Shown: positions 2,837 through 61,046, counted from the first letter of the stretch. The stretch is 64,000 bases of DNA from an uncultured Anaerobiospirillum sp. (GCA_944392765.1 CALXXU010000004.1:1-64000), one strand, 5' to 3'. Made by a program: numbers and translations. Notes: a model not told the origin generated them from the sequence alone.

Positions 2837-3337
2837 TTGAAAATCAGACGCACCGAGGAGCGTGACCTACCTCAGCTCCAGAAGATCTTCACCCAAGGCA
2901 TTGCCCGTCAGCGCAGTGAAGGCAATTTCAGCCAATGGCGTGAGGATTACCCGACCATCGAAGTCGTCAAAGCTGACATTAAGGCAGGCACAGGCTGGGT
3001 CTGCGTAGCTGATGATGACCAAACTGTCTTAGGCACTTGGGCCTTAGGCGGCCACGAACCGGTCTATAACCACTTAAAGAGCGGTCAGTGGAATTACGAC
3101 TTGCCGTACCAAGTCATTCACCGCATGGGCACTGTCCCAGGCCAAGGCGCGGGTAAGTTTATCATTGCCCATCTCCAAGCAACCTGTGATTACCCAAGGG
3201 TTGATACCTTTGAGAAGAATAGTGCCATGATTAAACTGCTGCAAAAAACCGGGTTCAAGCACTGTGGCGTCGCTTACTACGAGGGCTTTGGGGATATGCA
3301 AACCTTTGATTACAAGCGTCAACATCAAACTAAATAA
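2837..3337 (+). CDS. GNAT-family N-acetyltransferase
   Basis: 166-aa ORF (TTG start in the track) with typical GNAT layout: N-terminal R.EE.DL..L, central VLGTWALGG, and a QGAGKF segment at the expected acetyl-CoA-binding Q/RxxGxG/A position. Family call is by motif only. Confidence 0.7.
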   Translation: MKIRRTEERDLPQLQKIFTQGIARQRSEGNFSQWREDYPTIEVVKADIKAGTGWVCVADDDQTVLGTWALGGHEPVYNHLKSGQWNYDLPYQVIHRMGTVPGQGAGKFIIAHLQATCDYPRVDTFEKNSAMIKLLQKTGFKHCGVAYYEGFGDMQTFDYKRQHQTK

Positions 3338-19164: not shown

Positions 19165-20076
19165 TCAGTGGTAGTCACCAAAGGTGGGAATGGTCGCAGC
19201 GTGGTCAGGCCCTACCACTTGGGCGAAAAAGCGATTGATAGCAAGCGGGCAGAAGACCTTAACCTGAGCCGCTCGGTCGAAGCAAAAGCCCCCATAATGG
19301 CGCTCAAGCTCTAAGCATAGCTCCTCCGTGCTCAGATGCAGGCGCTCCGCTGCCACCTCAAGGTAATCCTCAAAGTAAGTGGTGAGCTCAGCTGCGGTGT
19401 AGCCCAACAAGTCCGCATACGCAGGCTCCCAGGTGAGATCACGGATATCGGAGCCGCCCCAAATGGTGGAAGATTGGTGACAAGTCACTCCTGTTAAGAG
19501 CGTAAACCAAAGGTTCGGCAACTCCCGTAGCCACGCTGCTAACTGCCGGAGCACCTTGCTGGTAGCATCAAAAGCCGCTCTGTGATGGAGCTGAGCCGAT
19601 AATGGGAAATCCCAATCATCAATCAGAACGACAAGATCAGTCCCGTGGGTCATGACCTCGAGTTCACCTAAAGTCTCAGTCAAAGATAGGCCTTGTTCGC
19701 TAAGCGCAGCGGCCTCAGTAAAGCCTGCTGCCTCAAAGGCAGAGCACAAGCGCGCCGCCAAGTCAGCACTCAGCGTGGTGGGGTTAGTTAGGCCCGCTAA
19801 GGACATCATGACCACCGGAAAGGTGCCGTGCGGCCACCGGGCTTGCACCGCCAGCCCCGCACAAGCTGGATTGTCTTGAGCACCATGAGCAAAGAGCTCT
19901 TGCAGCGTTGATAGCAGCAAGGTTTTGCCAAAACCATTAGGTCGCGCAAGAAATAAGGTTGAGCCCAGAGCCAGCTCTGCCAGCTGAGCAGTCTTATCCA
20001 CCAAGAGCTTATGCTGCTGACGCAACTGCCTCAAGCTCTCCGTCCCCAGTGGCAAGTCTTGTAACGCTTGTTCCAT
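19165..20076 (-). CDS. predicted AAA-ATPase (PF09820-like N-terminal domain), truncated form
   Basis: From ATG 20076 (SD aagga): MEQALQDLPLGTESLRQLRQQHKLLVDKTAQLAEL...LFLARPNGFGKTLLLSTLQELFAHG...VLIDDWDFPL. This matches the characteristic LP.G...F..l......vDKT..i..l...FL.RPRRFGKSL pattern of that family (recalled). It lacks the usual C-terminal PD-(D/E)XK domain. Confidence 0.65.
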   Translation of the reverse strand: MEQALQDLPLGTESLRQLRQQHKLLVDKTAQLAELALGSTLFLARPNGFGKTLLLSTLQELFAHGAQDNPACAGLAVQARWPHGTFPVVMMSLAGLTNPTTLSADLAARLCSAFEAAGFTEAAALSEQGLSLTETLGELEVMTHGTDLVVLIDDWDFPLSAQLHHRAAFDATSKVLRQLAAWLRELPNLWFTLLTGVTCHQSSTIWGGSDIRDLTWEPAYADLLGYTAAELTTYFEDYLEVAAERLHLSTEELCLELERHYGGFCFDRAAQVKVFCPLAINRFFAQVVGPDHAATIPTFGDYH

Positions 20077-20491
20077 CTTCTGTTCCTTGACACTCAACGG
20101 TCGGCGCGCCATGACCACTGTACGCCCTCTCAAGCGCTTGGTCGTGGGCTGCTTTCAATAGCTTGATCGTTATGCGGTCGTTATGCGGTACTTCGGCTCA
20201 ACGCGGTGGTCATTGCTGGTCGTAGCGCTTAAGAACGAAGCACAAAGACCGTACCATAATGCAGCCGCTGCGAGCTGCTACGAGACCTGCCTGATAGCGA
20301 CCTTTAGCTTGAGACAACTGGCGCCCCAGTGATGACAACTGGCGATCCAGTGATTTTGCAGCTCCCCCACACCAGCGCCCAGCTCATTGAGACAAGGCCT
20401 TAGGCGTAACGAACCCTCACCCATAACGTTCCATGTTCACCACTTAAGTATATAATAACACCACACTGTAGACTTAACGAGGAGCATATCC

Positions 20492-21751
20492 ATGGAGCAA
20501 CTACCCCGTCTCACCCTCGGCAATCCCTACTTTTGCCGCGTGCGCGATGAACACACCGTGCTGGTGGACAAGACTGCTAAGCTGGTCGAGCTGACCAACA
20601 ATCACAGGGTCTTTTTAGCGCGCCCGCGCCATATGGGCAAAACCCTGCTACACACCACCCTTACCGAGCTCTTTACCCATGGCGCCCGTAATAATCCTTA
20701 CTTTGAGGGCTTAGCGATTAAAGAGCAGTGGCCGGATGAATGGCGCTACCCGGTGGTTTACCTCTCACTCTTTGGGCTAAGTGACACAGAGAGCTTGGAG
20801 GCGAGCCTGTGCGCCCGTATCCGCTCTGCCTTGGTCAAAGCAGGTTTTAATGAGGCGCAAGACCCTCCAGTAGATGTTCTGAACCACCAATTAGAGCGCA
20901 TGAGCAATCTGATCTTTGGTCATAAAATCGCGGTGCTGATTGATGACTGGGTCTATCCGCTCCTGACCTGCGGTAACGATGTCGCTGCATACGAGGCTAG
21001 GCATGCGGTATTTCAGACGCTCATGGGCTGGCTCTATGTTCAGGAAGGCATAGCTTTCACCTTGGTGACTGGTTTAGGCCGCGATCCCTATCCATCCATG
21101 GTCGGAGACCTATTGGACATCAGCCGAGATACCTTTTTTGCAGATCTCACCGGCTTTACCTCCGAGGAAATCAGCACCTACTTTGCGCCACACCTCAAGC
21201 GTGCCGCTGAGCTGCGAGGCTGTAGCTCAAGCGAGCTGGTCGATCAAATCCAGGAGCACTACGGCAACATGTGCTTTGACCACGACTACCAAGTCATCGT
21301 GGCATGCCCATGGTCGGTCACCAACTTTTTGCAGAAAGTGGTCGATCAGCCTGACAGCGAGCCGCAGTTCGTGCCGTTTCGCAGGGAAGGCTATCGCTCC
21401 GATAAGCTGAGCATGCGACCGACGTCAGGTAACTTGGTCAATCCAAAGCCTCAAGCCCCCAACCGCGATCAAGTGCTGCGGCAAGCCTTCCTCAACATGA
21501 TTGAGCAGGCCTCAGATCCCCATTCTTGGCGCAAGCAAGTTCCGGTCAAGCGCGACCTGCTGATAAATACCTTGACCCAAGAATATGAGGTAATCAAGCG
21601 CGCAGAGGTCGAAGTTGACTACGATGAGATCAAGGGCATGGTCTTAGGCTGCGTCGCTTTTGCCGGTATGCGCGGCATGTCTTATGACTGCCAGATCGAG
21701 TGCGATGAGTTAGTGGCGCGCTTTATCGAAGCCTTACCAAATCTGCCTTAG
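20492..21751 (+). CDS. predicted AAA-ATPase (PF09820-like), paralog of 19165..20076
   Basis: MEQLPRLTLGNPYFCRVRDEHTVLVDKTAKLVEL...VFLARPRHMGKTLLHTTLTELFTHG...VLIDDWVYPL. SD gaggag is present. The gene is divergently oriented to its paralog. Confidence 0.65.
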   Translation: MEQLPRLTLGNPYFCRVRDEHTVLVDKTAKLVELTNNHRVFLARPRHMGKTLLHTTLTELFTHGARNNPYFEGLAIKEQWPDEWRYPVVYLSLFGLSDTESLEASLCARIRSALVKAGFNEAQDPPVDVLNHQLERMSNLIFGHKIAVLIDDWVYPLLTCGNDVAAYEARHAVFQTLMGWLYVQEGIAFTLVTGLGRDPYPSMVGDLLDISRDTFFADLTGFTSEEISTYFAPHLKRAAELRGCSSSELVDQIQEHYGNMCFDHDYQVIVACPWSVTNFLQKVVDQPDSEPQFVPFRREGYRSDKLSMRPTSGNLVNPKPQAPNRDQVLRQAFLNMIEQASDPHSWRKQVPVKRDLLINTLTQEYEVIKRAEVEVDYDEIKGMVLGCVAFAGMRGMSYDCQIECDELVARFIEALPNLP

Positions 21752-44254: not shown

Positions 44255-44839
44255 ATGGTTCACAACTATTTTGCCGAGCAGGACATCGCTAAGTCCTATC
44301 GCCTGCTCAACATCGGCGCTACCACCTTGATCGGCGCCTCCTACGAGGGTGACCTCGACTATATGGCCGCCGCTTGGGCTGGCGTCTGCGATTTTGATAA
44401 GGGCTATGCCATTATCGATAAGAGCCACTACACCCGTCCTTTGATTGAGAAGTCGGGACGCTTTGTCCTGTGCTACCCAACCGTCGGTATCGTCAAGCAG
44501 GTGATGAAGTTAGGCTCGATCTCCAAGAACGATGACAAGGACAAGCTCGAGCACAGTGGTGCTGAGTTAATCGAGCTCCCAGGCATCTCCATGCCGGTTC
44601 CTAAGGGCTGCGCCGCCTACCTCGAGTACGAGGTCATCCCTAATGCGCAAATGGAGCAGAGCATCGATATGTTCTTAGGCAAGTGCGTTAAGGTCATCAG
44701 CGATACCCGCGTGTACCACAACAACCACTGGCACTTTGACTCGGCCGATGAATCGCTGCGTACCCTGCACTATGTCGCAGGTGGCCACTTCTACGCTATC
44801 GGCAAGGAAATCTACCTGCCTGAGTACGGCGACGACTAA
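44255..44839 (+). CDS. flavin reductase-like (FMN-binding split-barrel) protein
   Basis: 194 aa. The layout ...LLNIGATTLIGASYEGDLDYMAAAWAGVCDFDKGYAIIDKSHYTRPLIEKSGRFVL... is typical of the flavin reductase-like domain. It lies on the opposite strand between flgC and flgD. Confidence 0.55.
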   Translation: MVHNYFAEQDIAKSYRLLNIGATTLIGASYEGDLDYMAAAWAGVCDFDKGYAIIDKSHYTRPLIEKSGRFVLCYPTVGIVKQVMKLGSISKNDDKDKLEHSGAELIELPGISMPVPKGCAAYLEYEVIPNAQMEQSIDMFLGKCVKVISDTRVYHNNHWHFDSADESLRTLHYVAGGHFYAIGKEIYLPEYGDD

Positions 44840-49147: not shown

Positions 49148-49876
49148 ATGAGATTATCGTTAAGGCACAAGCTTGGCGCCATGGTGATGAGTCTGACGCT
49201 GAGTCTCACGCTGAGTCTCACGCTGTGTGCCCCGGCTTTAGCTACGGTCGAAGAGGTTGAGTTCTTACGGCGGGTGGCCGAGCAATATGTGCTGGCGCAA
49301 TTTCAAAACCGCACTGATGACATCAAGGTCGAGGTTGAAGCTGGACGCTTAGATGAGCGGCGCAATTATGGCGGCCGCTGCGAAGGCTACCTCACAGCGC
49401 AGCTGCGCGGCAACGAGATTCGCAGTTCCTCGCAGGTCATGATTTCTTGCAGCCAGCCGGGCAATCAATACACGCTCTACATTCCGGTGCGCGTCAGCGT
49501 CTTAACTCCGGCCTTAGTGGCCGCGCGCAACTTAACCAAGGGCAATGTCATCAGCCCCGATGACTTAAAGCAGGTCTATCTCAACGAAAACACCAACCTC
49601 ACCACGGCGGTATCCGACCCTAATGTCTTGGTGGGCAGTCGCTTAAAGCGTGACGTGCGCCAAGGCGAGCAAATCAGATCTAATGGCTTTTGCGTGGTGT
49701 GCAAGAACGATAAGGTCAACATCGTCGCCCGATCAGGCGGCCTCTCACTTAAGACCTCAGGCATTGCCCTGCAAGAAGGCAATGTCAATGAATCGATTCG
49801 GGTGCGCAATATCAAGAGCGATAAGGTCATCTCGGCGGTGGTCACCGCCCCAGGTGAAGTCCAAGTGATTTTCTAA
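49148..49876 (+). CDS. flgA: flagellar P-ring assembly chaperone
   Basis: The signal sequence contains LTLSLTLSLTL. The protein has a SAF-like C-terminal part: VAARNL.KGNVIS.DDL...VGSRLKRDVRQGEQI...VNIVARSGGLSLKTSGIALQEGNVNESIRVRN. Confidence 0.85.
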   Translation: MRLSLRHKLGAMVMSLTLSLTLSLTLCAPALATVEEVEFLRRVAEQYVLAQFQNRTDDIKVEVEAGRLDERRNYGGRCEGYLTAQLRGNEIRSSSQVMISCSQPGNQYTLYIPVRVSVLTPALVAARNLTKGNVISPDDLKQVYLNENTNLTTAVSDPNVLVGSRLKRDVRQGEQIRSNGFCVVCKNDKVNIVARSGGLSLKTSGIALQEGNVNESIRVRNIKSDKVISAVVTAPGEVQVIF

Positions 49877-50213
49877 AGCAAGTGACCTTCTAAAACGAAC
49901 TACACCGAACTGGGCCCCACCATTGGGGCCCAAATTATTTGGACCCGGCTATGGCAGCAATCTGGGGATATGCCCCAAAAGAAAGCAGGGAGCTCCCAAA
50001 TAGTGACAACAGCGCGCCCGACCCCACAAATTTTAAGATTTTTGTCGGTCAGCCCTTTAGAAAAGCGCGCGCAATCCGTTACTAACGGTAAAGCAAAGCC
50101 CATTTTTCTGGGCAATGCTCTCAGGCGCTTCAAGGGTCATTAAGCACCGAGGGCAAATAGGTATGCGTTGCAAGATTTTGGCCCAAGATTTTCTGTTCAA
50201 GAGGGAATTTAAC

Positions 50214-50546
50214 ATGGCAATCGATTTCGTACGTGAAAGAGCGATTACGGCCATGCCCGAGAGTGTGGCTCAAACCCGCAGTGCAACTAAGGCCCAGTCC
50301 AAGGTCGCAGCCTACAGTGCAGGCAGCGCCGCCAAGACCCAAGAGCCTGATGACGTCCGCTTCACCGAAGGCGCCAAGACTGTAGCTCGCGCCACCGATC
50401 TCGCGCTGCAATCTGATGGCATCGACTACGCCAAGGTCGCGGCCATTCGCCATCAATTAGCCACCGGCACTTTCGAGTTTAACGACCAGCGCACCGCCGC
50501 CAAGATGTTAGCGGCATCGCAAGATCTAAGCTTCCTCCTCGATTAG
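50214..50546 (+). CDS. flgM: anti-sigma-28 factor
   Basis: From ATG 50214 (SD gaggga; residue 34 of the track ORF), 110 aa. The C-terminal IDYAKVAAIRHQLATGTFEFNDQRTAAKML is the typical FlgM sigma-28-binding region. It follows flgA. Confidence 0.8.
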   Translation: MAIDFVRERAITAMPESVAQTRSATKAQSKVAAYSAGSAAKTQEPDDVRFTEGAKTVARATDLALQSDGIDYAKVAAIRHQLATGTFEFNDQRTAAKMLAASQDLSFLLD

Positions 50547-50736: not shown

Positions 50737-53343
50737 CTAGGCCGAGGCCTTACGCCTCCCCTTGGCCTTGACCTTAGGCTTGGCCGCGAGCAAGTCGGCT
50801 TGGCACTTTTGCAAGCGCGCTAAGTGCGACTGCACCTGGGTCAAGTTGTACTTGAGTAGGCGCTCCTTCTCCTGCTGGTACTTGGCTTCATCGTCCACCT
50901 GGTGAGGTAAGGCGTTGAAGTTACTGCCGTAGCCAAAGATGTCGTAGCTCAGGCGCAACAGGTACTCGTACTCGGCAGGCGGCAGACGCGAGGCAAAGCC
51001 CAGCGAAATCGCCTCCTGCACCGAAAGCTCAGGATGGCCGTAGTAGAGCGTGGCGATGCGCAAGAGCGAGCGACTGGAAAAAGGCGCGGACAGGCCTGAC
51101 ACCGGAGCGCCCTCACTTGAGGCAGTTTCAGCTTCCACCTTAGCGACCGCTTGCGCGCGCTCGAGCTTAGTGCAGCTATTTTCATGGAGCTGCTCAAAGC
51201 CGGGCATCTGCTCCTCGCAGTGAGCAAAGAGCTCGTTGGCGGCAGTATTGGCCTCAACCGTGTCGCGCGCGCCGTCGTACTGGGTGAGCAAGCTTTGGTG
51301 GGCTAAGAGCTCATCAAAGAACGGACTTAACTGGGCACTGTTCAGCTCTGCTTGCGCGGCAGCCACTGAGGCCTCAGGCAAGTTGGCGTTTTGCGCCAAC
51401 AAGTCCTTTAAGGCCTGAGCGTGTTCCTTTAAGTCCTGCATGGTGGCGGCAAGCAAACGCACCTCAGCTTGCTCCAAGCGCTGCAATAAGGCGCGATTGT
51501 CTAAGCCGCTGTTATGGCCTAAACGCACTTCGGTGGCAAAGCGCAAAATGCCGTCACGAAAGTCCGGATTGAGCTTGGGACAAGCGCGCTCTAACATCAA
51601 GCGCTCTTGGGCAGCGCTAGGGTAGCCCACCTCGCAAAAGCGCCAGCGATCGAGGAAGGCCTGGTTTTGCAGCTTGACGCCATGATAGGAGCCCGACTCA
51701 TCGCCCTGGCCCTTGGAGTTGGCGGTCGCCACGACACGAAAGAAAGGATGGGGCTTGATCACCTCGCCATTATTGGCACTGATGGTCAAGGCGCGTCCTT
51801 CCAAGACATCGTTGAGTGCCGCGAGCTCCCCTGGGCTCATCAGGTCGATCTCGTTTAAGAGCAAGATCTCGCCGTAGAGCATGGCCCGCGCCAGCGGCCC
51901 ATAGCTAAAGCGCAGCTGACCGTGATCTAAGATATGGGCGCCGATCAAATCGCTGACCTCACTTTTTTGCGATAAGGTCACCGACTCTAATGGCCAATCA
52001 AGACGCGCCGCCACCTCAAACACAGCCGAGGTTTTGCCGCAGCCGGTAGGCCCCGATAAGAACAGCGCGTCATGGCTTGGCTCAGTCAAATAGAGCAGCA
52101 GCTCATAGAGCGTGCTACGGGCAAAGATGTAGTTGGAGTTAGACGGCGGCACCATCGACACTACCGTCGAATCAACCACCGCAAGCTCAGCTGAGCCCAG
52201 TCCCAACGCGCCCCCTGACACCAAGGAATCGGCAAAGAGCGGCTCAAGCTCCACCGTGCGCAGCGCCACCGCAGTTTGGTCCTTGATGCTGATCAAAGGG
52301 GTGTGCGCCTGCAAGGCCGCCCGATTGAACTCAGAGCGCAAGACCACGCGCACCGCCGTACTGTCGGGAGCTGCGGCATAGCGCACCACGTCATAAGGCT
52401 CAAGCCCATCTAAGTAGGAGCACACCTCCTCCTCTAAGGCGATGGTCAGTGCCGCTCCGGTGCGCACCGTGGGGGTGTTCAAGGCCAAATGCAGCTTGGC
52501 CGCCCCCACCGAGTGGGCCACTGTCCCTACCGAGTGCGCCACTGCCCCCACCGAGTGGGTCACTGCCCCTACCGAGTGCTCCACTGCCCCCACCGAGTGG
52601 GTCACTGCCCCTACCGACTGTGCCGTTACCCCTACCGACTGTGCCGTTACCCCTACCGAGTGCGCCGTTGCCCACGCCTCAGCATTGCCCGGCACGCAGC
52701 CCGGTGGGCACAAGGTCACATCATTGGGCACCGTTGGGCATGGGAAGGCCACGACGTTCCGCACCTCCTCACTGGAGCGCAGCTGGGTGCGCACCTGGTC
52801 GCTGGCAAGGCGCGCCCAGTACATGGAGCCATGCTTGAGATGTCCGCTACGCTCAGGCAAAAGCTGCGCCCCAAAGTGCGCCTGCGGCGGCTCAAACATA
52901 GCGTCCAATGGTGCCCCATGGAGTACCCCCGAGTAGACCCGACTGGTGACCAAGGAAGGCAAGTTAGAATCAGGCGGCGGCAGCATCACCCGCGTAACTG
53001 AGGGCAGCACTGAGCAAGGCTGAAGCGCCACTCCCGATGCCACCACCGGCGCGCGCCGAGCAGGGGCCATCTGCACGCCCACGGACGACAGCAATAACAC
53101 GCCCAGTGTAGCGGCGAGCTGCGGCGCAATCATGCTGATTTCACCGTAGCCCCATGGATCCATGAGGTACTGACCCCAGGCGCTATCGCTCGGTGCATTG
53201 AGCCCCAGCGCACTGAGTGCCGCCTCCCCCAAAGATAGCTCCGTCCTCAAGGCAAAGCCGATGGGAGCGGCCATGCTTGGGTGGAGCGGCAACGACCAGG
53301 CATTACTGCCTGCGGCCGTGATCAGAGCCATAAACTTAGTCAT
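50737..53343 (-). CDS. CobS-like AAA+ ATPase (AAA_5/MoxR superfamily) with ~430-aa N-terminal extension, coiled-coil insertion and basic tail
   Basis: The start is set at ATG 53343 (SD gggagg), which overlaps the upstream stop as ATGACTAA. The core is LFLSGPTGCGKTSAVFEVAARLDWP...ILLLNEIDL...IKPHPFFRVVATANSKGQGDESGSYHGVKLQNQAFLDRW...APFSSRSLLRIATLYYG...LSYDIFG. It parallels CobS GxxGxGKS / VAARLNWP / IRPHPAFRLFATANT.GLGD..GLYHGT..INQAQMDRW (recalled). The N-terminal extension carries 8 HSVGAV-type heptapeptide repeats. Confidence 0.8.
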   Translation of the reverse strand: MTKFMALITAAGSNAWSLPLHPSMAAPIGFALRTELSLGEAALSALGLNAPSDSAWGQYLMDPWGYGEISMIAPQLAATLGVLLLSSVGVQMAPARRAPVVASGVALQPCSVLPSVTRVMLPPPDSNLPSLVTSRVYSGVLHGAPLDAMFEPPQAHFGAQLLPERSGHLKHGSMYWARLASDQVRTQLRSSEEVRNVVAFPCPTVPNDVTLCPPGCVPGNAEAWATAHSVGVTAQSVGVTAQSVGAVTHSVGAVEHSVGAVTHSVGAVAHSVGTVAHSVGAAKLHLALNTPTVRTGAALTIALEEEVCSYLDGLEPYDVVRYAAAPDSTAVRVVLRSEFNRAALQAHTPLISIKDQTAVALRTVELEPLFADSLVSGGALGLGSAELAVVDSTVVSMVPPSNSNYIFARSTLYELLLYLTEPSHDALFLSGPTGCGKTSAVFEVAARLDWPLESVTLSQKSEVSDLIGAHILDHGQLRFSYGPLARAMLYGEILLLNEIDLMSPGELAALNDVLEGRALTISANNGEVIKPHPFFRVVATANSKGQGDESGSYHGVKLQNQAFLDRWRFCEVGYPSAAQERLMLERACPKLNPDFRDGILRFATEVRLGHNSGLDNRALLQRLEQAEVRLLAATMQDLKEHAQALKDLLAQNANLPEASVAAAQAELNSAQLSPFFDELLAHQSLLTQYDGARDTVEANTAANELFAHCEEQMPGFEQLHENSCTKLERAQAVAKVEAETASSEGAPVSGLSAPFSSRSLLRIATLYYGHPELSVQEAISLGFASRLPPAEYEYLLRLSYDIFGYGSNFNALPHQVDDEAKYQQEKERLLKYNLTQVQSHLARLQKCQADLLAAKPKVKAKGRRKASA
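52505..52672. repeat. 21-bp in-frame tandem repeat x8 inside the CobS-like gene
   Basis: Plus strand reads cc(c/t)accga(g/c)tg.g.c(a/g)(c/t)t(g/a)(c/t)c x8, encoding ...HSVGVTAQSVGVTAQSVGAVTHSVGAVEHSVGAVTHSVGAVAHSVGTVAHSVGAA... Confidence 0.9.
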
Positions 53344-55000
53344 AGCAACCTCCCGATAACGAGGTGTCGTTGCAACCGGCAGCTGCGGACAGCAGGTTCG
53401 CATCACCAGGGCAACGCAACTCAGATGCGAGCACCGAGTGCGCCTCAGACCGATCCCCCGCGCTAGAGCAAGGCGGCGTGACCGAACGTACCTCACTTGC
53501 GCGGCGCCCTTTTCTTTGACGGCGCGCTTCCTCTTGCTCGCGCTCTTGGCGGCGACGCACCTGCTCCTTTAAGGGCAGCTGAACCGGGATGGTGGCGGCG
53601 GACAAAGGTGCGCTCGAGTCATTCCAGCCAGCGGCGATCCAATCGAGATCGGCTTGGCTTAAGAACGGGGGATCGGGCATGAGATCAGCATCCCAAGCCC
53701 AAGGCCCCAAACCGCAATCACTAAAGCCCGACTCCCCTAAGCCGTCGGAGCTGCGCCAATCATGGAAGAGCTCCGCGTAAGCAGCTTGCGCCTCCAGCGC
53801 CGCTTGGAGCTTGCACTCCAAATCAGGCTCAAGGTCAGGTGCCGACTGCAATAAGGACATGAGGCGCCACGAACGCGGCAGCGGCTCGGCCAGTGGAGAA
53901 TCATCCCAGCGCATCCCAGCCTGGCCCAGCTCAATTAAAGGCACGGGCTCGACTGGATCAAGCGGCGCGGCCAAGGCCGTGTCATCAAGTGGGGTCCAAC
54001 CGGCACGAGTTGCGGCCAAGGTGTCCTGCGCTGAAGCGCGGCGCAAATCGCGGCGCGTTTCGTTTACGACCAAGGCCGCCGACGCATCAGCAGGCAAGTA
54101 TGGAGCGCCCGCCCCTGCCAGGTCGCGCGCCCACAGCGCCAAAGTCGGACCATCGACTGCCGCAGCGCTACCTGCTAACAAGTCATCGGGCAAGGTCGCC
54201 CCGATAAGGCGCGCCCCAAAGGTGCCGTGCGCCGCCTCGGCGTTAAAGGCGAGTTTCTTAGCGCCCATTTCTTGGGCGATGGCCTCAAGCAAGGTCGGCG
54301 GCAGCGCCAGCGCCTCAGCAGGCGCCGCAGCAGAGGCCAAAGGCAGCGTCCCCGTGCTCTGGTGCGCCGCTATGTTCTGTTCCCAGAGCACGTTATGGAA
54401 GCAGGCAGCAGAGCTTTGACCAGATTCTACGGAGTCCCTAGCCGCCACGCCCTCACAAGCCTGAGTGCCTACCGTCTCAGGAACCGGAGCACAACTCCGA
54501 GTACCTGCGACTGCAACAACCGAAGCATTGTTGAGCGCAACACACTGAGCGTCACTGGCTTCATCAGCCTGAGCACCTGCTGTAGCACTCTGAGCCAACT
54601 CACCTGCAGCAGGCTGAGCGCAGGTGGTCGCGGCACTTAGTAGCCATGAGCGCTTAGCACTGGAGTTTGCCATTGCCTGAGTGCAGGTGTTCACGGCACT
54701 CTGAGCCCACGCGCCATCAGTTAGCTGAGCGCGCATTACCTCACCCCAGGATGCAGCGCCATCAGTTAGCTGAGCGCGCATTACCTCACCCCAGGATGCA
54801 GCGCCATCCTGGACGTTGAGCGTGAATGCTGAGGACTCGGAGCTGAGGCGTGCGCTGGCGTAAACCCCTACGCCCTGCGGCAGAGCGCAGCAAGTCTGAG
54901 GGCGCGTCTTAGCAGTCAGCGGTGGGAGCACCGCGTCAAAGCCCTTGGTCGCAGGTGCGGCCGCAGAGCTAGGCAGGGATGACATGATGCAAGTAGGCAT
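53336..55000 (-). CDS. hypothetical Ala-rich acidic protein (554 aa)
   Basis: ATG 55000 sits behind agagagg. It is translationally coupled to the CobS-like gene. It contains a perfect 15-aa tandem duplication (DGAASWGEVMRAQLT x2) and a C-terminal basic patch RRRQEREQEEARRQRKGRR. No vWA/MIDAS motif was seen. Confidence 0.6.
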   Translation of the reverse strand: MPTCIMSSLPSSAAAPATKGFDAVLPPLTAKTRPQTCCALPQGVGVYASARLSSESSAFTLNVQDGAASWGEVMRAQLTDGAASWGEVMRAQLTDGAWAQSAVNTCTQAMANSSAKRSWLLSAATTCAQPAAGELAQSATAGAQADEASDAQCVALNNASVVAVAGTRSCAPVPETVGTQACEGVAARDSVESGQSSAACFHNVLWEQNIAAHQSTGTLPLASAAAPAEALALPPTLLEAIAQEMGAKKLAFNAEAAHGTFGARLIGATLPDDLLAGSAAAVDGPTLALWARDLAGAGAPYLPADASAALVVNETRRDLRRASAQDTLAATRAGWTPLDDTALAAPLDPVEPVPLIELGQAGMRWDDSPLAEPLPRSWRLMSLLQSAPDLEPDLECKLQAALEAQAAYAELFHDWRSSDGLGESGFSDCGLGPWAWDADLMPDPPFLSQADLDWIAAGWNDSSAPLSAATIPVQLPLKEQVRRRQEREQEEARRQRKGRRASEVRSVTPPCSSAGDRSEAHSVLASELRCPGDANLLSAAAGCNDTSLSGGCYD

Positions 55001-55014
55001 AACAAGGACCTCTC

Positions 55015-55473
55015 TTAGTTACGGGAAAAAACTGGGTTGAAACGGGCCGCTGAGCGTAACAGCTGCTCGTAATAGGAAATCAAAGCGCCAGGCTTGGGAT
55101 CGCCCGTCAGGTCGCATGAAGACAGAATGCCCTGGGCTTGGGGCTTAAGCTCACCTACCACCGTACCAGTACCGCAATGAGCGGTATCAGTGGCGCACGC
55201 GATGGGGTCCATAGCAGAACCAGGACGCAGCGCCGGGCACATTTGCGCCAGACGATCGCGCTCGACGGTGGCAATGCCGAGCACCACCATCATGGCCACA
55301 ATGCCAAAGAGGTAGTACGTCCACAATTTGTCACGGCCCACCGAGTCGATACCGCCCCTGCTGTGAGAAAACTTGATTAAGTGCTTGACGGCGCGCATCG
55401 CACCTAAGTTATTGCTCTTAAAACCAGGGGCGCAAGCGCCATGAGGACGGGCATGAAAGGCATGGTTAGTCAT
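55015..55473 (-). CDS. hypothetical single-pass membrane protein (152 aa)
   Basis: ATG 55473 behind gagga (residue 40 of the track ORF). TM segment LWTYYLFGIVAMMVVLGIATV, and a Cys-containing C-terminal part. Confidence 0.5.
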   Translation of the reverse strand: MTNHAFHARPHGACAPGFKSNNLGAMRAVKHLIKFSHSRGGIDSVGRDKLWTYYLFGIVAMMVVLGIATVERDRLAQMCPALRPGSAMDPIACATDTAHCGTGTVVGELKPQAQGILSSCDLTGDPKPGALISYYEQLLRSAARFNPVFSRN

Positions 55474-55597
55474 ACAAATAAATCCTCGAGTTAGTTGGCA
55501 ATACCAGTACAGGCCAAGGGAGCTAAGGGAGTTGCGCTCAGCCCCAAGAAGTAGAATCAGAAGACAGCGGCACCAGGATGGCGGCACCATGACGGCG

Positions 55598-55978
55598 TTA
55601 CCACCCTGTGGTAAGGCCGGAGCCGTCCCCTGCTCTAAGCTTGGAATCCAGATGCAACAGCGTCAGCCGAGCAGCCTCAGAGCGCGAGTACGAGCTTTGG
55701 AGCAAATCCCAAAACTTAGGACAGGTCAGGATCGCCAGCCCCGCTTCCGGGCCGAACTCTTTCAGCAAGCCAAAGTAATTGGCGTAATTGGGTACGTGTT
55801 GGATGAACAGAAAGGCGAAAGGGACCACCTGGTTAAAACGCTCTTGGAGCTCTTCTGAGCCAAAGCGCAGCGGGTTAAGCCCGACCGACTCTTGGTGGCT
55901 GATACGTGCGGCACGGCGCTCACTCTTAGCCTTACGGCTACGTTGTTGGCGTAAGTTGCGTTGCTTAGCACTCTTCAT
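55598..55978 (-). CDS. small protein with arginine-rich N-terminus, paralog 4
   Basis: MKSAKQRNLRQQRSRKAKSERRAARISHQ...; 126 aa; SD ggaga. Confidence 0.55.
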   Translation of the reverse strand: MKSAKQRNLRQQRSRKAKSERRAARISHQESVGLNPLRFGSEELQERFNQVVPFAFLFIQHVPNYANYFGLLKEFGPEAGLAILTCPKFWDLLQSSYSRSEAARLTLLHLDSKLRAGDGSGLTTGW

Positions 55979-56038
55979 AACAAGAAAATCTCCACAAAGG
56001 CCCAGCCCCAGCTGGGCAGAAACAAAAGAGCCAGGAAA

Positions 56039-56506
56039 CTAGTGCGCGGCCGAAACTTCAGGCGCGGCCAAAATACGCTCGACCAAGGCGGCGTCCTCAC
56101 CCCAGCCTAGTGCCTCTAAGGCACAGTCGATGGGCTCAGGTGGGCGTTTAAACTCAGCGGCGCGCACGATTGCAAGATAGGACGGAGCCTTAGCGCCTCG
56201 GCGCTGATAGCGGGGCTCATGGCACAGCACAGCATCAGCCGCTGCTTGCGGCGCGACGCCATCCTTGACCCGCGCCCAGAAATCATCGGAGGACAGGAAC
56301 TCCTCACATTGCGCGCATGACTTGGTATCAAAGAGCGCGCGATAGCCGGGGTTGAGCCGCTCCAAGTAGAGCTGAACCTCAGGCCAGCACGGGTTAAGGG
56401 CAAAACACAGTGGAAGGCCCTGACTCTCAAGGCGGTTCTGACTCTCAGCACAGCGCTGATACTGCTTGCTGCGACTGCGCAGCTGACGATGCTTACGCTT
56501 ACTCAT
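56039..56506 (-). CDS. small protein with arginine-rich N-terminus, paralog 3
   Basis: MSKRKHRQLRSRSKQYQR...; 155 aa. Its start overlaps the end of the upstream ORF. Confidence 0.55.
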   Translation of the reverse strand: MSKRKHRQLRSRSKQYQRCAESQNRLESQGLPLCFALNPCWPEVQLYLERLNPGYRALFDTKSCAQCEEFLSSDDFWARVKDGVAPQAAADAVLCHEPRYQRRGAKAPSYLAIVRAAEFKRPPEPIDCALEALGWGEDAALVERILAAPEVSAAH

Positions 56507-56816
56507 ATAAACGTGGTCCTAAGATCAGAGACAAAGTGAGGAGCGGGAACTTGTGATTCCACGCAATTGCTTCGGCGGGAAAGTTGTCGGGGTGAAAGGT
56601 CTGATGGTGTCGGCCCATAAGCTTGCGCAACGTGCCATACTGAGGCACTTGCGGGCAGAGCTCCGTGCTATAGAAGGGCTCTGTGACGCCTGTGCTGACG
56701 GGGTGCAGCAGGGCTGCATGCGCCTTACGGGCGGCACGACGCGTTTGCTGCGCCTTGCGGGCGGCACGACGCGTTTGCAGCGCCTTGCGGTTTTGCTGGT
56801 TATGCTTGGTCTTCAT
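56499..56816 (-). CDS. small protein with arginine-rich N-terminus, paralog 2
   Basis: From ATG 56816 (SD gggag): MKTKHNQQNRKALQTRRAARKAQQTRRAARKAH... It contains a 30-bp in-frame tandem duplication at about 56721-56790. Confidence 0.55.
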   Translation of the reverse strand: MKTKHNQQNRKALQTRRAARKAQQTRRAARKAHAALLHPVSTGVTEPFYSTELCPQVPQYGTLRKLMGRHHQTFHPDNFPAEAIAWNHKFPLLTLSLILGPRLYE

Positions 56817-56874
56817 AGGACAAACTCCCAATAAACGAAAAGAGAACGAAGGAGAACGAGCGAGATGAGCCGAA

Positions 56875-57135
56875 CTAGCCCAGCCAAAAGCGCGATGGCA
56901 CCAAGTCGAGGCCTACGACTTCGTGATGGCGCTCAAAGGACCTGACGCTCCGGGAATGGACTTTTCCCAACTGCGTAAAACCGTTGAACTGAACAGACTC
57001 CGGCGCAGAGGACTCAGTCTTGAGGGCGAACACGGCCTTGAGTGCAGACGCGGCCTTGAACGCAGCGCGCTCCTTACGAGCAGCCCGGCGTAACTCGTGG
57101 GTCCTAAGGTTTTGGTGGCGGTAATTGGTCTTCAC
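56875..57135 (-). CDS. small protein with arginine-rich N-terminus, paralog 1
   Basis: From GTG 57135 (ggag ~10 nt upstream): (M)KTNYRHQNLRTHELRRAARKERAAFKA..., which aligns residue-for-residue with paralog 2. The start is uncertain (TTG 57150 in the track). Confidence 0.5.
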   Translation of the reverse strand: MKTNYRHQNLRTHELRRAARKERAAFKAASALKAVFALKTESSAPESVQFNGFTQLGKVHSRSVRSFERHHEVVGLDLVPSRFWLG

Positions 57136-57163
57136 AGCAAACAGCTCCAAACGAAGAAGGGAC

Positions 57164-58153
57164 TTAAGCGCACAGGTGGGTGCCGTAGGCAGTCAAGGTT
57201 TGCGGCGCAGCGGCCAAGGCTTTAGCGATCCGACTGTCACGGGCCAGCCACGCAAGCAAAGCATGGTGGTGTTGATAAGCTAGGCTCGCGCGCAAGGAGG
57301 CCAAGGGTGAATGCTGGGCAAAGAGCTCATGCGAGGCGTCATGGGTCAGAACAGCCGTAAGCTCAGTTAAGGGGCAGAGCTGGTTTTGGGCTAAGAAGGC
57401 GCCATAGACCGGCGTGATGGCCTCAGGATTAAGGCAGAGCTGCAAGGCGTGGTTGGACGCAAGTGCCGTTGGCGTGGTTAAATCCAAGCCACGAAGTGAC
57501 TTCAGGGACTTAGCTAAAGCAGATTTAGCAGCGCACTGACCACCATAGGTGTTATGACCTGGCAGGCCATAAGACAAAGGACGCAGACCCAAGGCTTGGG
57601 CGTAGCACTGGCGTGGGATGTAATGGGAGCCATAAAACAGCGCCACCGGGTGGAACGGCGCTACCTGATGGAAGGTGATCGCTGCTTCGTACGGCGTATC
57701 AAAGGTCAGGTACGGCAGGCGTGGCTCGTAGCGCGCTTCACTAGGAGCCAAAGCCAAGGCGCTCACCATTAAGGCAGGCTCGGCGCTATTAACTACCGTG
57801 CGTTTTGCCGCTGGTACCCCCACTGGGGTAGGCAGCATGACGTAGCTGAGCTCAGGTTGCACCGCAAAGCCGGTCAGCACCAACTTGTGGCCAAAGTACT
57901 GGGCCAAAAGCGAGCGCAAGAGCGTATCAAGATCGCGATCGGCCACAGGGAAGATAAGGCGGGTGACCACAGCTTTCTTGGCAGGTGCCGCCGTGCCTGG
58001 GACTGACGGCAACATGCATTGAGCTGACGCTACGGTGTTCTTAGCAGGAGCGACGATCGCGCTGGCCAGCAAGCAATGCTGCTGAGAAGGTAAGAGGCCG
58101 ACGGCCAGTTCGGCCTTGAGTTGGGCGCCGCAGAGGCGTAATTGCGAGTACAT
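57164..58153 (-). CDS. hypothetical protein (329 aa), first gene of the operon
   Basis: The start is taken at Met51 of track ORF 57164..58303 (MYSQLRLCG...), because a strong hairpin plus T-run occupies the upstream part of the ORF. No family recognised. Confidence 0.5.
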   Translation of the reverse strand: MYSQLRLCGAQLKAELAVGLLPSQQHCLLASAIVAPAKNTVASAQCMLPSVPGTAAPAKKAVVTRLIFPVADRDLDTLLRSLLAQYFGHKLVLTGFAVQPELSYVMLPTPVGVPAAKRTVVNSAEPALMVSALALAPSEARYEPRLPYLTFDTPYEAAITFHQVAPFHPVALFYGSHYIPRQCYAQALGLRPLSYGLPGHNTYGGQCAAKSALAKSLKSLRGLDLTTPTALASNHALQLCLNPEAITPVYGAFLAQNQLCPLTELTAVLTHDASHELFAQHSPLASLRASLAYQHHHALLAWLARDSRIAKALAAAPQTLTAYGTHLCA

Positions 58154-58164
58154 AGTTTTTTTTC

Positions 58165-58200
58165 CCCGTAATAAAAAAGCCTCTGGATAAATCACAGAGG
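58165..58200 (-). terminator. terminator-like hairpin immediately upstream of the operon's first ATG (terminator or attenuator)
   Basis: Minus strand: gcctctg-tgatttatc-cagaggc followed by ttttttatt, ~12 nt before the ATG. Confidence 0.4.
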
Positions 58201-58793
58201 CTTTAACTAAATGAGAAGGAGCTTTCCTGTACTCAAATTTAGCAAACGACTTCGGAGCACCCGCGCGTAATAAAAAGCAAAACGCGCCTTGCTGTTGTAT
58301 CAATCAAAGCGCCAGCAAATGGCTAAGAAATCAGGATTAACAGCACATAATTCCCATACACCTGTACCACCAAACAAAGTGAGTAATCAAACACTAAAGA
58401 ACCCTGAAGCAATCAGGGATTAAGCCAAAAAGCAGCTCAAGAATTTTTCAATAGGCGTCACAAATGTAGCTAGCAAAGCGCAAGCAAAACGCTTAAACAA
58501 GCGAAAAATGCGACCTGCAAATCAATGAGAAATAAACTTGCAAAATTATGATCAAAATCATGTTTACGTAAAAGTTTAAGCGCGAAGTGCCCTGAGGCCA
58601 AAATATATCTAGAAAAGCACGCGAAGCCTTATGCCATCAGGCTTTGCGCACTCACCACGCACCAAATCACATAGTTACAACGTCGACCAAAGTGATGAAA
58701 AGGCCAGAAAAGCTGATATTTAAGCCAAAAACGCCACTAAAAGGGACAAATTCGGCCGCTTCGGCTGCAACTCGTTGCAAGTGCATTGTCGCC

Positions 58794-58969
58794 GATCGTT
58801 AGATCATCAGATCAAGCAGATCGCAGATCCACGGATCGCGGAGATCGGAGATCATCAGATCGCTCAGCTCACAAGGTTGCAGCTTACGCGGAGTGCCAGA
58901 TCACTGAGATCATCAGAGCGCGAGATCTCTGATCTCATCAGATAGCAGATCATGCAGATCGTGCAGATC
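58794..58969. repeat. dense GATC cluster / degenerate (c)agatc(n) short repeats
   Basis: I counted 16 GATC tetramers in ~176 bp, mostly as cagatc or gagatc, in the spacer between the operon and the flagellin gene. Confidence 0.85.
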
Positions 58970-60134
58970 GTCGGTTTGCCACTATAAGAGCACTCTATGG
59001 TTGCTCTGAAGCGGAGGCAACCTTTGGGGCAGGAGCCTACCTACTGGATCTCAGAAGAAGCGATCTATGGCTGCTATGAACAGGCGGCAAGCTTAGGTCG
59101 GGTTGATACCTACAGCGCAAAGACCTGCCCACGGTCGCAAGCGAGCGACGCGCTGAAACCGTCGTGAAGGGAATAGTCTTAGCCTTAAGCGGCTACGGAA
59201 TTGTGCTTACCTGACCATCGAGCAAGCGTCAGTCAGGCCTAAGTCAAGCACATCAAAGGGCGGATTTGGCGCACAGGGGCAAGCTTTCCTAGTCAACAAC
59301 TTTCTAGTACCTGCTCTAATCTTAGCTGGTACTGCTATCAAGAAGATCGCCCTGAGACCACTCAGCTCAACCCCTAGCCTAATGAAGCTCAGGCCTCTTA
59401 CACCCAAGAACACATTTAATGAAGTTAATTCGATACTCATCGCATTTCCTAGTCAACTAAAATCTTTCAAAAAGCAATAAAGTCAGCTTGATAGCTGCTG
59501 CATCCCTTATAACAAGCCATTTCCACTCTAAGACTGTGTGTATCTATACCGATTACACGCAAACCCCGCTTTTACTCACAAGCTGCATTAAACGGCTGAT
59601 TTATCGCATTTTATTAAACTTCAAGCTGATGATGGAGAACAATGCTCGTAGCAAAAATTTTTTCTTGCCTGGGCCTAAAGTTTGGGTAAGGACACGCAAA
59701 CAGCCCAACATTTTGGTCATTTTTGGCTTACTTATGCGGTTTTACTCTTTAATCTAAAGTTTAGATCAAAGCTGAGATTTAGAGGCTAGTTGTAACTATT
59801 GATCTATCGTCTAGGCTTGATTCTATCTTGGTTTACACAAGATCACACAACGATCATTAAACATCGTAGCCCACGGCTCGTTAACTAAGGTGTCAGATGC
59901 AGAAATGCATAAGAACTTCGACATTAAGTCGCAACCGGGAAATCAAAACCAGCATGGGACGGCAGTTTGTTGCACGGCGCCATGATGGTGTTCTTACTCA
60001 AGGCACGCAAAGGCTGGTCAGAGCCTGAGCATGGTTGGTCAGAACCTAGCTGATGGTAAGAGCAAGCTTTTGTGTGACTTAGTGCTGCTCATGGGCCAAA
60101 AGCCCTGAACTTAGAGCAATAAGAGGAACTCAAA

Positions 60135-61046
60135 ATGGCAGTTTATGTAAATACTAACGTATCGTCCTTAAATGGCCAGCGTTACCTGAACAACGTTCAG
60201 AACAGCCTGAACACCACCTACACCCGTCTTTCTTCGGGCTTACGCATCAACTCCGCTAAGGATGACTCCGCAGGCCTCCAGATCGCCGACCGCTTAACCT
60301 CCCAGATCAACGGCTTAAACCAAGGCAACCGTAATGCTAACGACGGTATCGCTTTAGCTCAGACCGTTGAAGGCGGCCTCGACGAAATCTCGAACATGCT
60401 GCAACGCATTCGTACCTTAGCAGTTCAATCCTCTAACGGTACCTTAGGTGACGATGATCGTGAGTCGATCCAAAACGAGGTTACCGCCTTAACTGATGAA
60501 ATCACCCGTATCGCTGAGCAAACCACCTTTGGTGGCAAGAAGATTTTAATGGGCTACAACGGTGGTGATTCCATTTACGGTACCACTGCTAAAACCCAAC
60601 CTGGCGCTGGTGCTACCAAGGCTGGTCTGATTCTGCACGTTGGTGCAAACCAAGACGACACCATCAACATGGAAGTCTACAGCTTCCAGTTCACCAAGTT
60701 AGCCAATGCAGCAGGCTTAGCTGGCACTGACCTCAATGGCAAGACCTTCTCGGTCAGCACCCAATGCGCAGCTAACCGCACCATCACCTCGATCGACGCT
60801 ATGATCGATGTTGTTGACTCGCAGCGTGCTGAGTTAGGTGCTATCCAGAACCGCTTAGAGTCCTCGATCCGCAACCAGTCCAATGTCTCCGCTAACTCCG
60901 CTGATGCACGTTCGCGTATCCGTGACGCAGACTTCGCCGAGGAGTCCGCTAACCTGTCGCAACAGTCCATCATCCAGCAGGCTGCTACCTCCATGCTGAT
61001 GCAGGCTAACACCCGTCCTCAGCTGGCCCTCTCGATGTTAGGTTAA
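60135..61046 (+). CDS. fliC: flagellin (short, 303 aa)
   Basis: MAVYVNTNVSSLNGQRYLN...LSSGLRINSAKDDSAGLQIADRL...N.NDGIALAQT.EG.L.E....LQRIR.LAVQS.NGT... C-terminal LGAIQNRLES...ADFAEESANLS...QAATSMLMQAN. SD aagagga is present. Confidence 0.93.
   Translation: MAVYVNTNVSSLNGQRYLNNVQNSLNTTYTRLSSGLRINSAKDDSAGLQIADRLTSQINGLNQGNRNANDGIALAQTVEGGLDEISNMLQRIRTLAVQSSNGTLGDDDRESIQNEVTALTDEITRIAEQTTFGGKKILMGYNGGDSIYGTTAKTQPGAGATKAGLILHVGANQDDTINMEVYSFQFTKLANAAGLAGTDLNGKTFSVSTQCAANRTITSIDAMIDVVDSQRAELGAIQNRLESSIRNQSNVSANSADARSRIRDADFAEESANLSQQSIIQQAATSMLMQANTRPQLALSMLG

Follow-up and report, generated by a model that had tools for sequence, protein, structure and literature searches.

What is a CobS-like AAA+ ATPase doing in a flagellar locus, and with what partner does it work? 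The question is raised by a 64,000-nt stretch of DNA from an uncultured Anaerobiospirillum (family Succinivibrionaceae), which we refer to as the window. Between flgA-flgM (49148-50546, plus strand) and a flagellin gene (60135-61046, plus strand), eight open reading frames (ORFs) lie in the same direction on the minus strand, from 58153 down to 50737, and all are intact. A first-pass annotation of the window had called them an operon with a single recognizable gene, the last, which encodes the ATPase. Our ORF map agrees, and the product of this gene was the only one with a family match in Pfam, NCBIfam, PHROGs, or PADLOC. By comparison with other loci (labeled L001 to L100), we find that the operon is old, vertically inherited, and specific to the Succinivibrionaceae, and that it sits at the junction of flgN with flgM/flgA. 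Its family-wide core is two genes: one for a protein of about 100 amino acids (aa) with a probable oligonucleotide/oligosaccharide-binding (OB) fold of the single-stranded DNA-binding protein (SSB) type, and then one for a CobS-like ATPase of 332-364 aa. Anaerobiospirillum has inflated this two-gene core into an eight-gene, disorder-rich operon. The eight genes of the window, which we call g1 to g8, are:

57164..58153, minus strand: g1, 329 aa; predicted SSB-type OB fold in the N-terminal part, helical C-terminal half
56875..57135, minus strand: g2, 86 aa, GTG start (the ORF is open up to 57150); pI 11.2
56499..56816, minus strand: g3, 105 aa; pI 11.0
56039..56506, minus strand: g4, 155 aa; Arg/Lys-rich N-terminus
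55598..55978, minus strand: g5, 126 aa; weak paralog of g4
55015..55473, minus strand: g6, 152 aa (not 191; the start is from the alignment with L088_g6); single-pass membrane protein
53336..55000, minus strand: g7, 554 aa; acidic, Ala/Pro-rich
50737..53343, minus strand: g8, 868 aa; CobS-like (MoxR-class, AAA_5) ATPase

The closest species (L088, whose ATPase is 81% identical) has the same eight genes, encoding 324, 74, 95, 170, 130, 153, 579, and 821 aa. We used its orthologs to refine the starts of g2 (the GTG at 57135), g3 (56816), and g6 (55473) and to compute the ratio of nonsynonymous to synonymous substitution rates (dN/dS, by the Nei-Gojobori method), which was 0.16-0.70 over all eight genes (g1 0.32, g2 0.41, g3 0.51, g4 0.19, g5 0.65, g6 0.70, g8 0.16). 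Because dN/dS is below 1 in all eight, the genes are coding and under purifying selection. This selection is much weaker on the operon than on flgM, flgA, cheV, and cheR, whose dN/dS is 0.00-0.05; the values for the operon genes are 3 to >20 times higher. The overlap of g7 with g8 that had been reported can be read in the sequence (8 nt, ATGACTAA), and g3 and g4 also overlap by 8 nt (ATGAGTAA). As described before, flgN is displaced: it lies about 11 kb from flgM, on the opposite strand. For g1 to g7, there was no credible match in the four databases named above (g6 had one sub-threshold chance match, with E = 0.053), and the neighbors of the ATPase fit no cobalamin, flagellar, or phage-structural family in Pfam, NCBIfam, or PHROGs.

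In every Succinivibrionaceae flagellar locus that we recovered, a relative of g8 fills the slot between flgN and flgM/flgA. The order flgT, flgO-flgP-flgN, operon, flgM/flgA, cheV-cheR-flgB is common to loci of three groups. The slot is filled in GC-rich loci (L001, L002, L008, L088, and L090; the stretches of L088 and L090 stop short of the flgN side), in AT-rich loci (L004, L006, L007, L011, L096, L098, and L100), in A. succiniciproducens DSM 6400 (L009), which is the third group, and also in the distant L095. In the window, L088, and L090, flagellin genes are inserted between flgN and g1. Full-length relatives of g8 are found only in Anaerobiospirillum genomes and metagenome-assembled genomes (MAGs), and shorter ones are found in Succinivibrio-like MAGs; all other matches to g8 cover the AAA core only. 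In a neighbor-joining tree of this core, all of the flagellar-locus ATPases form one clade, beside a group from integrative and conjugative elements (ICEs) and prophages, and the branching within the clade follows the species groups of the loci.

Two loci have the core in its minimal form. In a Succinivibrio MAG (L012), flgP-flgN is followed by a 118-aa ORF and then by a 332-aa ATPase without the extension described below; the far side of the pair is not flagellar (a lipoprotein gene and dnaG). L095 is from a distant metagenomic relative (34% GC; cheV is 65% identical and flgO is 37% identical) and has flgO-flgP-flgN, a terminator, a 102-aa ORF, a 364-aa ATPase 15 nt on, and an EamA transporter, followed by flgM and flgA on the other strand and then by cheV-cheR. 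In A. succiniciproducens (L009, 2030-11764), the operon is replaced by genes for an 851-aa and then a 2358-aa protein. Both are of low complexity and rich in Ser, Thr, Ala, and Gln, and the ATPase is the C-terminal third of the 2358-aa protein. In this genome, a gene for a methyl-accepting chemotaxis protein lies between the 2358-aa ATPase gene and flgM.

The full gene set is less widely conserved than the core. Its co-localization in other genomes had been proposed as a check on the operon: all eight genes are together in L088, but only there, and reduced versions have five genes in L090 and four in L001. Within the GC-rich clade, g1, g4/g5, g6, and g7 have recognizable orthologs, with 30-50% identity. 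When 90 loci were searched with hidden Markov models of five accessory families, every member was in the GC-rich clade, and profile-profile comparison with hhalign gave no link between the accessory families and the proteins of the AT-rich clade.

The case for an OB-fold partner begins with the minimal loci. The 118-aa ORF of L012 matches the SSB alignment with an hhalign probability of 91.9% (E = 7e-7, 102 columns). The 102-aa ORF of L095 matches SSB by hhalign at E = 1.7e-4 and in Pfam at E = 0.0028, with 18.1 bits, which is below the cutoff of 26. On these profile comparisons, the two minimal proteins very probably have the SSB-type OB fold.

The first-pass annotation had described g1 as an orphan, which no longer seems apt: these minimal counterparts match SSB profiles, and the modeled structure of g1 resembles an SSB-like OB fold. 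An AlphaFold2 model of g1 from 8 close sequences had a predicted local distance difference test score (pLDDT) of 32, and the model was usable only after distant representatives were added to the alignment. It then had a predicted template modeling score of 0.62 and a pLDDT of about 80-90 at residues 1-165, which are modeled as beta-rich with one helix (72-86); the C-terminal half (about 165 aa) is helical and of low confidence. SSBs were at the top of a Foldseek search of the PDB, with weak matches (E = 0.2-1, target-normalized TM-scores up to 0.68) to Streptomyces SsbB, Plasmodium SSB, yeast Rim1 (TM-score 0.68), human mtSSB, and RECC OB proteins. Against BFVD, the best match was a phage “putative SSB” (E = 0.011, probability 0.82), followed by SSB, DUF669, and LEF-3 entries. 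By eye, the conserved blocks of g1 are strands 1 and 2, a variable insertion, strand 3, a helix, and strands 4 and 5, which is the SSB pattern. Because of the position of the gene, this block pattern, the model, and the Foldseek matches to SSBs, g1 probably has the same SSB-type OB fold as the minimal proteins. The g1 family is tiny, with 13 representatives among 1.84 billion proteins, and g1 has orthologs at 79%, 41%, and 32% identity. In the AT-rich clade, the first gene appears by eye to encode an OB fold that is split by an insertion of about 280 aa (L004_g1); hhalign gave no support for a relationship of these first genes to SSB. In L096, the first gene appears as two ORFs (3299-3529 and 3745-4206) that correspond to the N- and C-terminal halves of the putative OB fold; the gene could be truly split, or the reading frame could be broken by a frameshift or by faulty assembly.

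These proteins differ from typical members of the SSB/PriB family (PF00436). The minimal partners align over the whole OB domain (L012) or over its C-terminal half (L095); all of the OB-protein scores are below the Pfam gathering threshold, and the acidic C-terminal tail is missing. A loop insertion and a helical C-terminal extension of about 165 aa further set g1 apart, and the OB gene of the operon is not beside replication or repair genes.

The other member of the pair, g8, had been described as a CobS-like AAA+ ATPase of about 2.5 times the normal size, with an extension at the N-terminus, an insertion in the lid, and a basic tail. Profiles and alignments bear this out, and g8 is 2.4-2.6 times as long as the minimal members (332-364 aa). 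It matches Pfam AAA_5 well above the gathering cutoff (E = 6e-20, 72 bits versus 22), and it matches the CobS family TIGR01650 with the same E value but far below the equivalog cutoff (71.7 bits versus 558.55). The match to phrog_249 has E = 5.9e-50 (g8 residues 477-665 versus profile positions 129-316). The parts of g8 are:

51487..52164, minus strand: AAA+ core, residues ~394-619, with invariant columns in the alignments
52030-52053, minus strand: Walker A motif, GPTGCGKT, invariant in the alignments
51844-51864, minus strand: Walker B motif, LLLNEID, in which Asn replaces Asp and the catalytic Glu is kept
52502..52673, minus strand: heptapeptide array (A/T)(H/Q)SVG(A/V)(V/T), an in-frame tandem repeat (21 nt x 8.2)
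51094..51516, minus strand: lid insertion, residues ~610-750, hypervariable in length and sequence

Also kept in g8 are the sensor-1 Asn (ATAN), the Arg finger (LDRW), and sensor 2 (SxR in the lid), all of which are invariant in the alignments too. The NE form of the Walker B motif was present in 90 of 117 motif matches (comparison loci plus the window), including all of the flagellar-locus forms listed; this count is for the whole family, with no separate figure for the ICE relatives. The core of g8 aligns to midasin, CobS, and NorQ chains, and the AAA domains of midasin outscore CobS. Judged by its sequence, g8 is an ATPase of the ring-forming MoxR/CobS clade, with the catalytic motifs retained.

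The enlargements are the variable parts of the protein. The N-terminal extension (about 360 aa) is disordered and hypervariable between species; it is rich in Gln, Asn, and Ser in AT-rich hosts and rich in Ala, Val, and Pro in the window. The heptapeptide repeats that had been seen in the extension are the tandem array listed above, whose unit is single-copy in relatives at 81% identity. The lid insertion (about 125 aa) lies between the first lid helix and the sensor-2 helix, LSAPFSxRSLLRI; in the short forms, this stretch is only 22 aa long. Among the aligned ATPases that could be read to the C-terminus, all but P0007 end in a basic tail. A stretch of about 47 residues is exactly duplicated within the C-terminal lid of one ATPase from the AT-rich clade (P0014, from L006): HGFAARLEPKEFAFVMRMTFEIFGYVSEFDKLPRTISNVEEYLDFRK (alignment columns 1501-1600). 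L004 and L006 are from the same NCBI assembly, so they represent two near-identical copies or haplotypes of the locus.

The first-pass annotation had noted that CobS-like ATPases normally pair with a CobT-like protein that contains a von Willebrand factor A (vWA) domain and its metal ion-dependent adhesion site (MIDAS). No such partner had been seen in the operon, and we found none: the eight products had no match to vWA, CobT, or CobN in Pfam or NCBIfam. The only DxSxS strings are DTSLS at the C-terminus of g7 and DESGS inside the AAA core, neither of which has a plausible MIDAS context. For g7, for which we have no structure model, neither the Pfam search nor the alignment gave any sign of a vWA fold. 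The NorQ/NorD, CbbQ/CbbO, and RavA/ViaA systems share with g8 the LDR(F/W) Arg finger and the sensor-2 Arg in the lid (the NorQ and CbbQ chains match g8 at about 1e-14), and in such MoxR-vWA pairs, as in the operon, the partner gene is translationally coupled to the ATPase. They differ in that the conserved partner in the operon is an SSB-like protein, probably with an OB fold. There is one other likeness of this kind. GvpN, the second-best NCBIfam match of g8 (E = 7e-11, 42 bits versus a cutoff of 267), is a CobS-like ATPase that works without a vWA partner; unlike GvpN, g8 has no gas-vesicle genes around it.

Where did the pair come from? Genes for CobS-like AAA+ proteins abound in ICEs, plasmids, and phages. 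The best ATPase matches beyond the Succinivibrionaceae are about 320 aa long, with 42-52% identity in the core, which is the size of the minimal Succinivibrionaceae forms. Their hosts include Shewanella, Vibrio, Marinomonas, Providencia, Sutterella, Oscillospiraceae, Desulfovibrio, and others. Among 78 non-flagellar loci with a relative of the ATPase, ssb was within a few kb in 46 and bet was in 50. One of these, an annotated Salmonella genomic island, has the order traN ... AAA ATPase-hypothetical-ssb-bet, which we take to be the ssb-bet-exo-cobS block of SXT/R391. Both bet and exo promote recombination between ICEs. The ICE and prophage proteins (phrog_249) thus resemble the flagellar-locus ATPases in their core, in the NE form of Walker B (family-wide), and in having an SSB-family gene nearby. 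They differ in that they lie beside bet, exo, and conjugation genes, whereas the operon is chromosomal and in a fixed flagellar slot. No bet, exo, integrase, or tra genes are present at the operon; the SSB-like gene alone has been retained. Furthermore, the OB partner in the operon is highly diverged and directly upstream of the ATPase in the core, and the Anaerobiospirillum ATPase has the large extension and the lid insertion. Because the ATPase lineage is a single clade whose nearest relatives are in the ssb-bet-exo modules of ICEs and prophages, the most economical account is that an ssb-plus-ATPase pair was captured once from a mobile element, at the flgN-flgM junction in an ancestor of the family, and then descended vertically.

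The genes between g1 and g8 are lineage-specific additions, and we found none of them outside the GC-rich clade. Four of them had been described as paralogous small proteins with Arg-rich N-termini. This stands for g4 and g5, which are weak paralogs (27% identity by BLASTP, E = 5e-4), but g2 and g3 share only the N-terminal peptide. The first 35 residues of g2 to g5 contain 9-12 Lys or Arg each, and the peptide that they have in common is R-x-x-(E/Q)-RRAAR(K). In g2, which is only 50% identical to its counterpart in L088, the Arg-rich peptide reads ...ELRRAARKERAA; in g3, the unit QTRRAARKA is duplicated by a tandem repeat (30 nt x 2.4, at 56719-56790); and the N-terminus of g5 is MKSAKQRNLRQQRSRKAKSERRAAR. 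The g4 protein has a conserved core (residues ~42-114) and orthologs in L088, L001, and L090, and L090_g2 matches both g4 and g5. The protein with one transmembrane segment that had been noted is g6 (residues 52-70, with a Kyte-Doolittle 19-residue maximum of 2.04). The Ala-rich, acidic protein coupled to the ATPase is g7, with a pI of 4.6, a net charge of -26, and the overlap with g8. Its N-terminal half is variable and contains a strain-variable repeat (45 nt x 2.2, at 54711-54808). Its conserved region (residues ~230-495) is Pro-rich, has short motifs, and ends with QLPLKEQVRRR. Orthologs of g7 are present in L001 and L090.

Our preferred explanation, which we hold tentatively and at somewhat less than even confidence, is that the operon encodes a pair domesticated from a mobile element, an SSB-like adaptor and an AAA+ remodeler that act together on single-stranded nucleic acid. 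The ATPase would form a MoxR-type ring and hydrolyze ATP, and, with no vWA adaptor, substrate binding on single-stranded DNA or RNA would fall to the SSB-like protein. In the GC-rich clade, the Arg-rich small proteins may be additional substrate-binding parts. The ring would then load, strip, or remodel a nucleoprotein complex; both the basic ATPase tail and the acidic g7 may tune this interaction. The position among the flagellar genes would be a historical accident that became frozen, and it would offer regulatory convenience at most. A remodeling activity is suggested because of the SSB-like partner, the travel of ssb and bet with such ATPases in mobile elements, the basic tails, and the Arg-rich peptides.

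Several observations weigh against this explanation. Sequence profiles of g1 gave no link to the PDB, to E. coli PriB, to the SSB alignment, or to the OB protein of L012, and g1 had no match to PF00436; its structural matches are statistically weak (E = 0.01-1); and OB folds bind proteins and sugars too. Membership of the g1 family does not strictly imply the operon: one paralog (P0087, 436 aa, at 10001-11311 of L093) is flanked by metA-like and CinA-like genes and is not close to any ATPase or flagellar gene. The Arg-rich proteins are found only in the GC-rich clade and therefore are not essential to the core mechanism. To our knowledge, the role of “cobS” in SXT/R391 has not been established, so the argument from association is thin. 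Finally, the slot has been retained in three diverged lineages, even after rearrangements, which exceeds what is expected of a frozen accident.

The last point leads to the main rival, which is that the operon encodes a dedicated flagellar factor: a chaperone, an assembly factor, a polar organizer, or a post-transcriptional regulator of polar-tuft flagella. Its support consists of positional conservation. The pair is between flgN and flgM/flgA in all of the lineages recovered, including the distant L095, and in L012 it is still with flgP-flgN after the locus broke. MoxR-class ATPases such as NorQ, CbbQ, and RavA are assembly chaperones in other systems, which would suit such a role. Also, in the window, the operon and the flagellin gene have a long conserved intergenic region in common. 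Two features of this region are:

58176..58204, minus strand: stem-loop of 10 bp with a T-run, about 20 nt upstream of the ATG of g1
58183..58972, minus strand: non-coding leader/promoter region, with windowed identity to L088 of 80-94%

The leader (about 800 nt) is more conserved than most of the coding sequence of the operon (64-90% versus L088), and it could represent a long leader or an RNA that has not been annotated; an Rfam search of the window found nothing. A type III toxin-antitoxin system or a non-coding RNA is a further, speculative reading of this conserved stretch. The stem-loop is kept in four species with compensatory changes (without the T-run in L001), and it could be a terminator or attenuator or a stabilizing hairpin at the 5' end. 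We considered antitermination, with lambda-N-like Arg-rich peptides bound to this hairpin, and did not adopt it, the Arg-rich proteins being confined to one clade. A cluster of 16 GATC sites in about 175 bp (58794-58969), spaced by about 8-9 nt in degenerate GATCTGNN octamers, lies between the flagellin gene and g1, against a background in the window of 4.2 GATC per kb. L088 has the cluster too, likewise with 16 sites, but L001, L090, and the AT-rich species do not. It may act as a regulatory element of the Dam/SeqA type.

Other evidence argues against a flagellar factor. In both L095 and L012, flgN is followed by a hairpin that resembles an intrinsic terminator, which makes the pair a transcription unit of its own. 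Crude scans for the sigma-54 and sigma-28 consensus found no site upstream of g1; sigma-54 sites were found before flgF and flgO. The codon usage departs from that of the flagellar genes and suggests lower expression (see below), and dN/dS is far above that of the flanking flagellar genes. No partner resembles a flagellar family, and the accessory content turns over between clades. Overall, we consider a dedicated flagellar factor unlikely, and yet the strongest of the competing explanations. We think it distinctly less probable that the two ideas combine, with a recombination accessory of a mobile element re-used as a genuine and so far unseen component of the Succinivibrionaceae flagellar system. 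In that case, the pair might be an ATP-driven organizer that binds nucleic acid or protein, and its very large disordered partners, which reach 2358 aa in A. succiniciproducens, might scaffold or regulate the polar tufts.

Equally improbable, in our judgment, is a conflict system, either an anti-phage or anti-plasmid defense or a retained anti-defense, with the OB protein as a sensor of single-stranded DNA and the AAA+ protein as effector or regulator. The mobile-element origin of the ATPase lineage is consistent with this, as are the fast evolution and turnover of the accessory proteins (dN/dS of 0.65-0.70 for g5 and g6) and the in-frame tandem repeats that vary between close strains. However, PADLOC gave only noise at the level of the P-loop (E = 0.002-0.02 over about 30 residues), and searches of Pfam, NCBIfam, PHROGs, and PADLOC found no nuclease, toxin, or other effector domain. 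The operon is in one fixed syntenic slot and is not patchy as defense islands are, and viral contigs contained no close relative of the flagellar-type ATPase (identity of at most 40%).

The first-pass annotation had favored acquisition of the operon, as a block that is richer in GC than its flanks and uses more TTG and CTA codons for leucine. The overall GC content is indeed higher (0.56-0.63 versus about 0.53 in the flanks), but GC at the third codon position (GC3) is unchanged: the operon has values of 0.62-0.73, and the remaining genes of the window have values of 0.58-0.77. The excess is confined to codon positions 1 and 2 (0.52-0.63 versus 0.43-0.50), and it arises because the proteins are rich in Ala, Leu, Pro, Arg, and Gly (for example, Ala is 15.0% versus 10.1% and Pro is 6.3% versus 3.3%). 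As for leucine, TTG is enriched (0.27 versus 0.07-0.13), but CTA is not (0.03), and TTA is depleted (0.14 versus 0.40 in the rest of the window). The GCG share is also higher (0.29 versus 0.08-0.16), and for Leu, Ala, and Arg, the choice among synonymous codons in the operon departs significantly from that elsewhere in the window. Given that GC3 is unchanged and synteny is conserved, this codon usage suggests weak translational selection, i.e., low expression, and not foreign origin.

Across four species with genomes of 39% to 64% GC, the GC content of the block tracks the host (0.36-0.48 in L004, about 0.44-0.45 in L009, and 0.61-0.66 in L001). As had been observed before, the window has no tRNA genes, and no integrase was found. 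Because the ATPases form a single clade that matches the loci, synteny is conserved across the family, and GC3 is that of the flanks, we reject recent acquisition; a recently arrived GC-rich island with a CobS-like ATPase and a novel, fixed set of partners is very improbable, despite the higher overall GC and the differences in synonymous usage.

The least credible alternative, to which we give almost no weight, is a CobS for cobaltochelatase or another metal insertion in cobalamin synthesis: TIGR01650 is the best NCBIfam match, and the AAA_5 core, together with its N-terminal helix region, is colinear with solved CobS chains (PDB 9ujv; g8 391-574 versus chain 33-219, E = 7e-23), but g8 fails the equivalog cutoff, is matched better by midasin AAA domains, has a lid insertion, extension, and basic tail that CobS lacks, and is in a flagellar context without CobT, CobN, or a vWA protein.

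Three other features of the window are worth recording. On the plus strand at 44255-44839, between flgC and flgD and on the opposite strand to them, is a 194-aa gene of the flavin-reductase family (PF01613 in its orthologs), whose position is constant across all of the Anaerobiospirillum loci that we examined. The gene at 4703-11836 (plus strand) encodes a protein of 2377 aa that has an autotransporter beta-domain at the C-terminus (PF03797, E = 6e-29); its passenger region had no Pfam match. Two divergent genes, at 19165-20133 (minus strand) and 20492-21751 (plus strand), each have a match to the family “Predicted AAA-ATPase” (PF09820, E of about 1e-21) and adjoin two tandem genes for pyridoxal phosphate enzymes of Cys/Met metabolism.

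The ATPase superfamily and its close mobile-element family are known. What is new is the obligate pairing of a CobS-like ATPase with an SSB-like partner, probably of OB fold, rather than with a vWA protein, the domestication of this pair in a fixed slot of the flagellar locus across a bacterial family, and its inflation into an eight-gene operon; our searches of the literature on Anaerobiospirillum flagella, on MoxR and flagella, and on cobS and SXT found no description of such a module. We know of no function that has been assigned to the CobS-like genes of ICEs, plasmids, and phages, and the “porphyrin biosynthesis” label on genes of the phrog_249 type is almost certainly wrong. Here, one lineage of these genes has been kept for a long time by a whole family, always by an SSB-like gene, which points to single-stranded nucleic acid as the working partner and not to a metal enzyme bound through a vWA protein. 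Because A. succiniciproducens DSM 6400 has been cultured, the Succinivibrionaceae offer a tractable chromosomal model for these ATPases. If the position in the flagellar locus is functional, then the pair would be a new flagellar accessory system.

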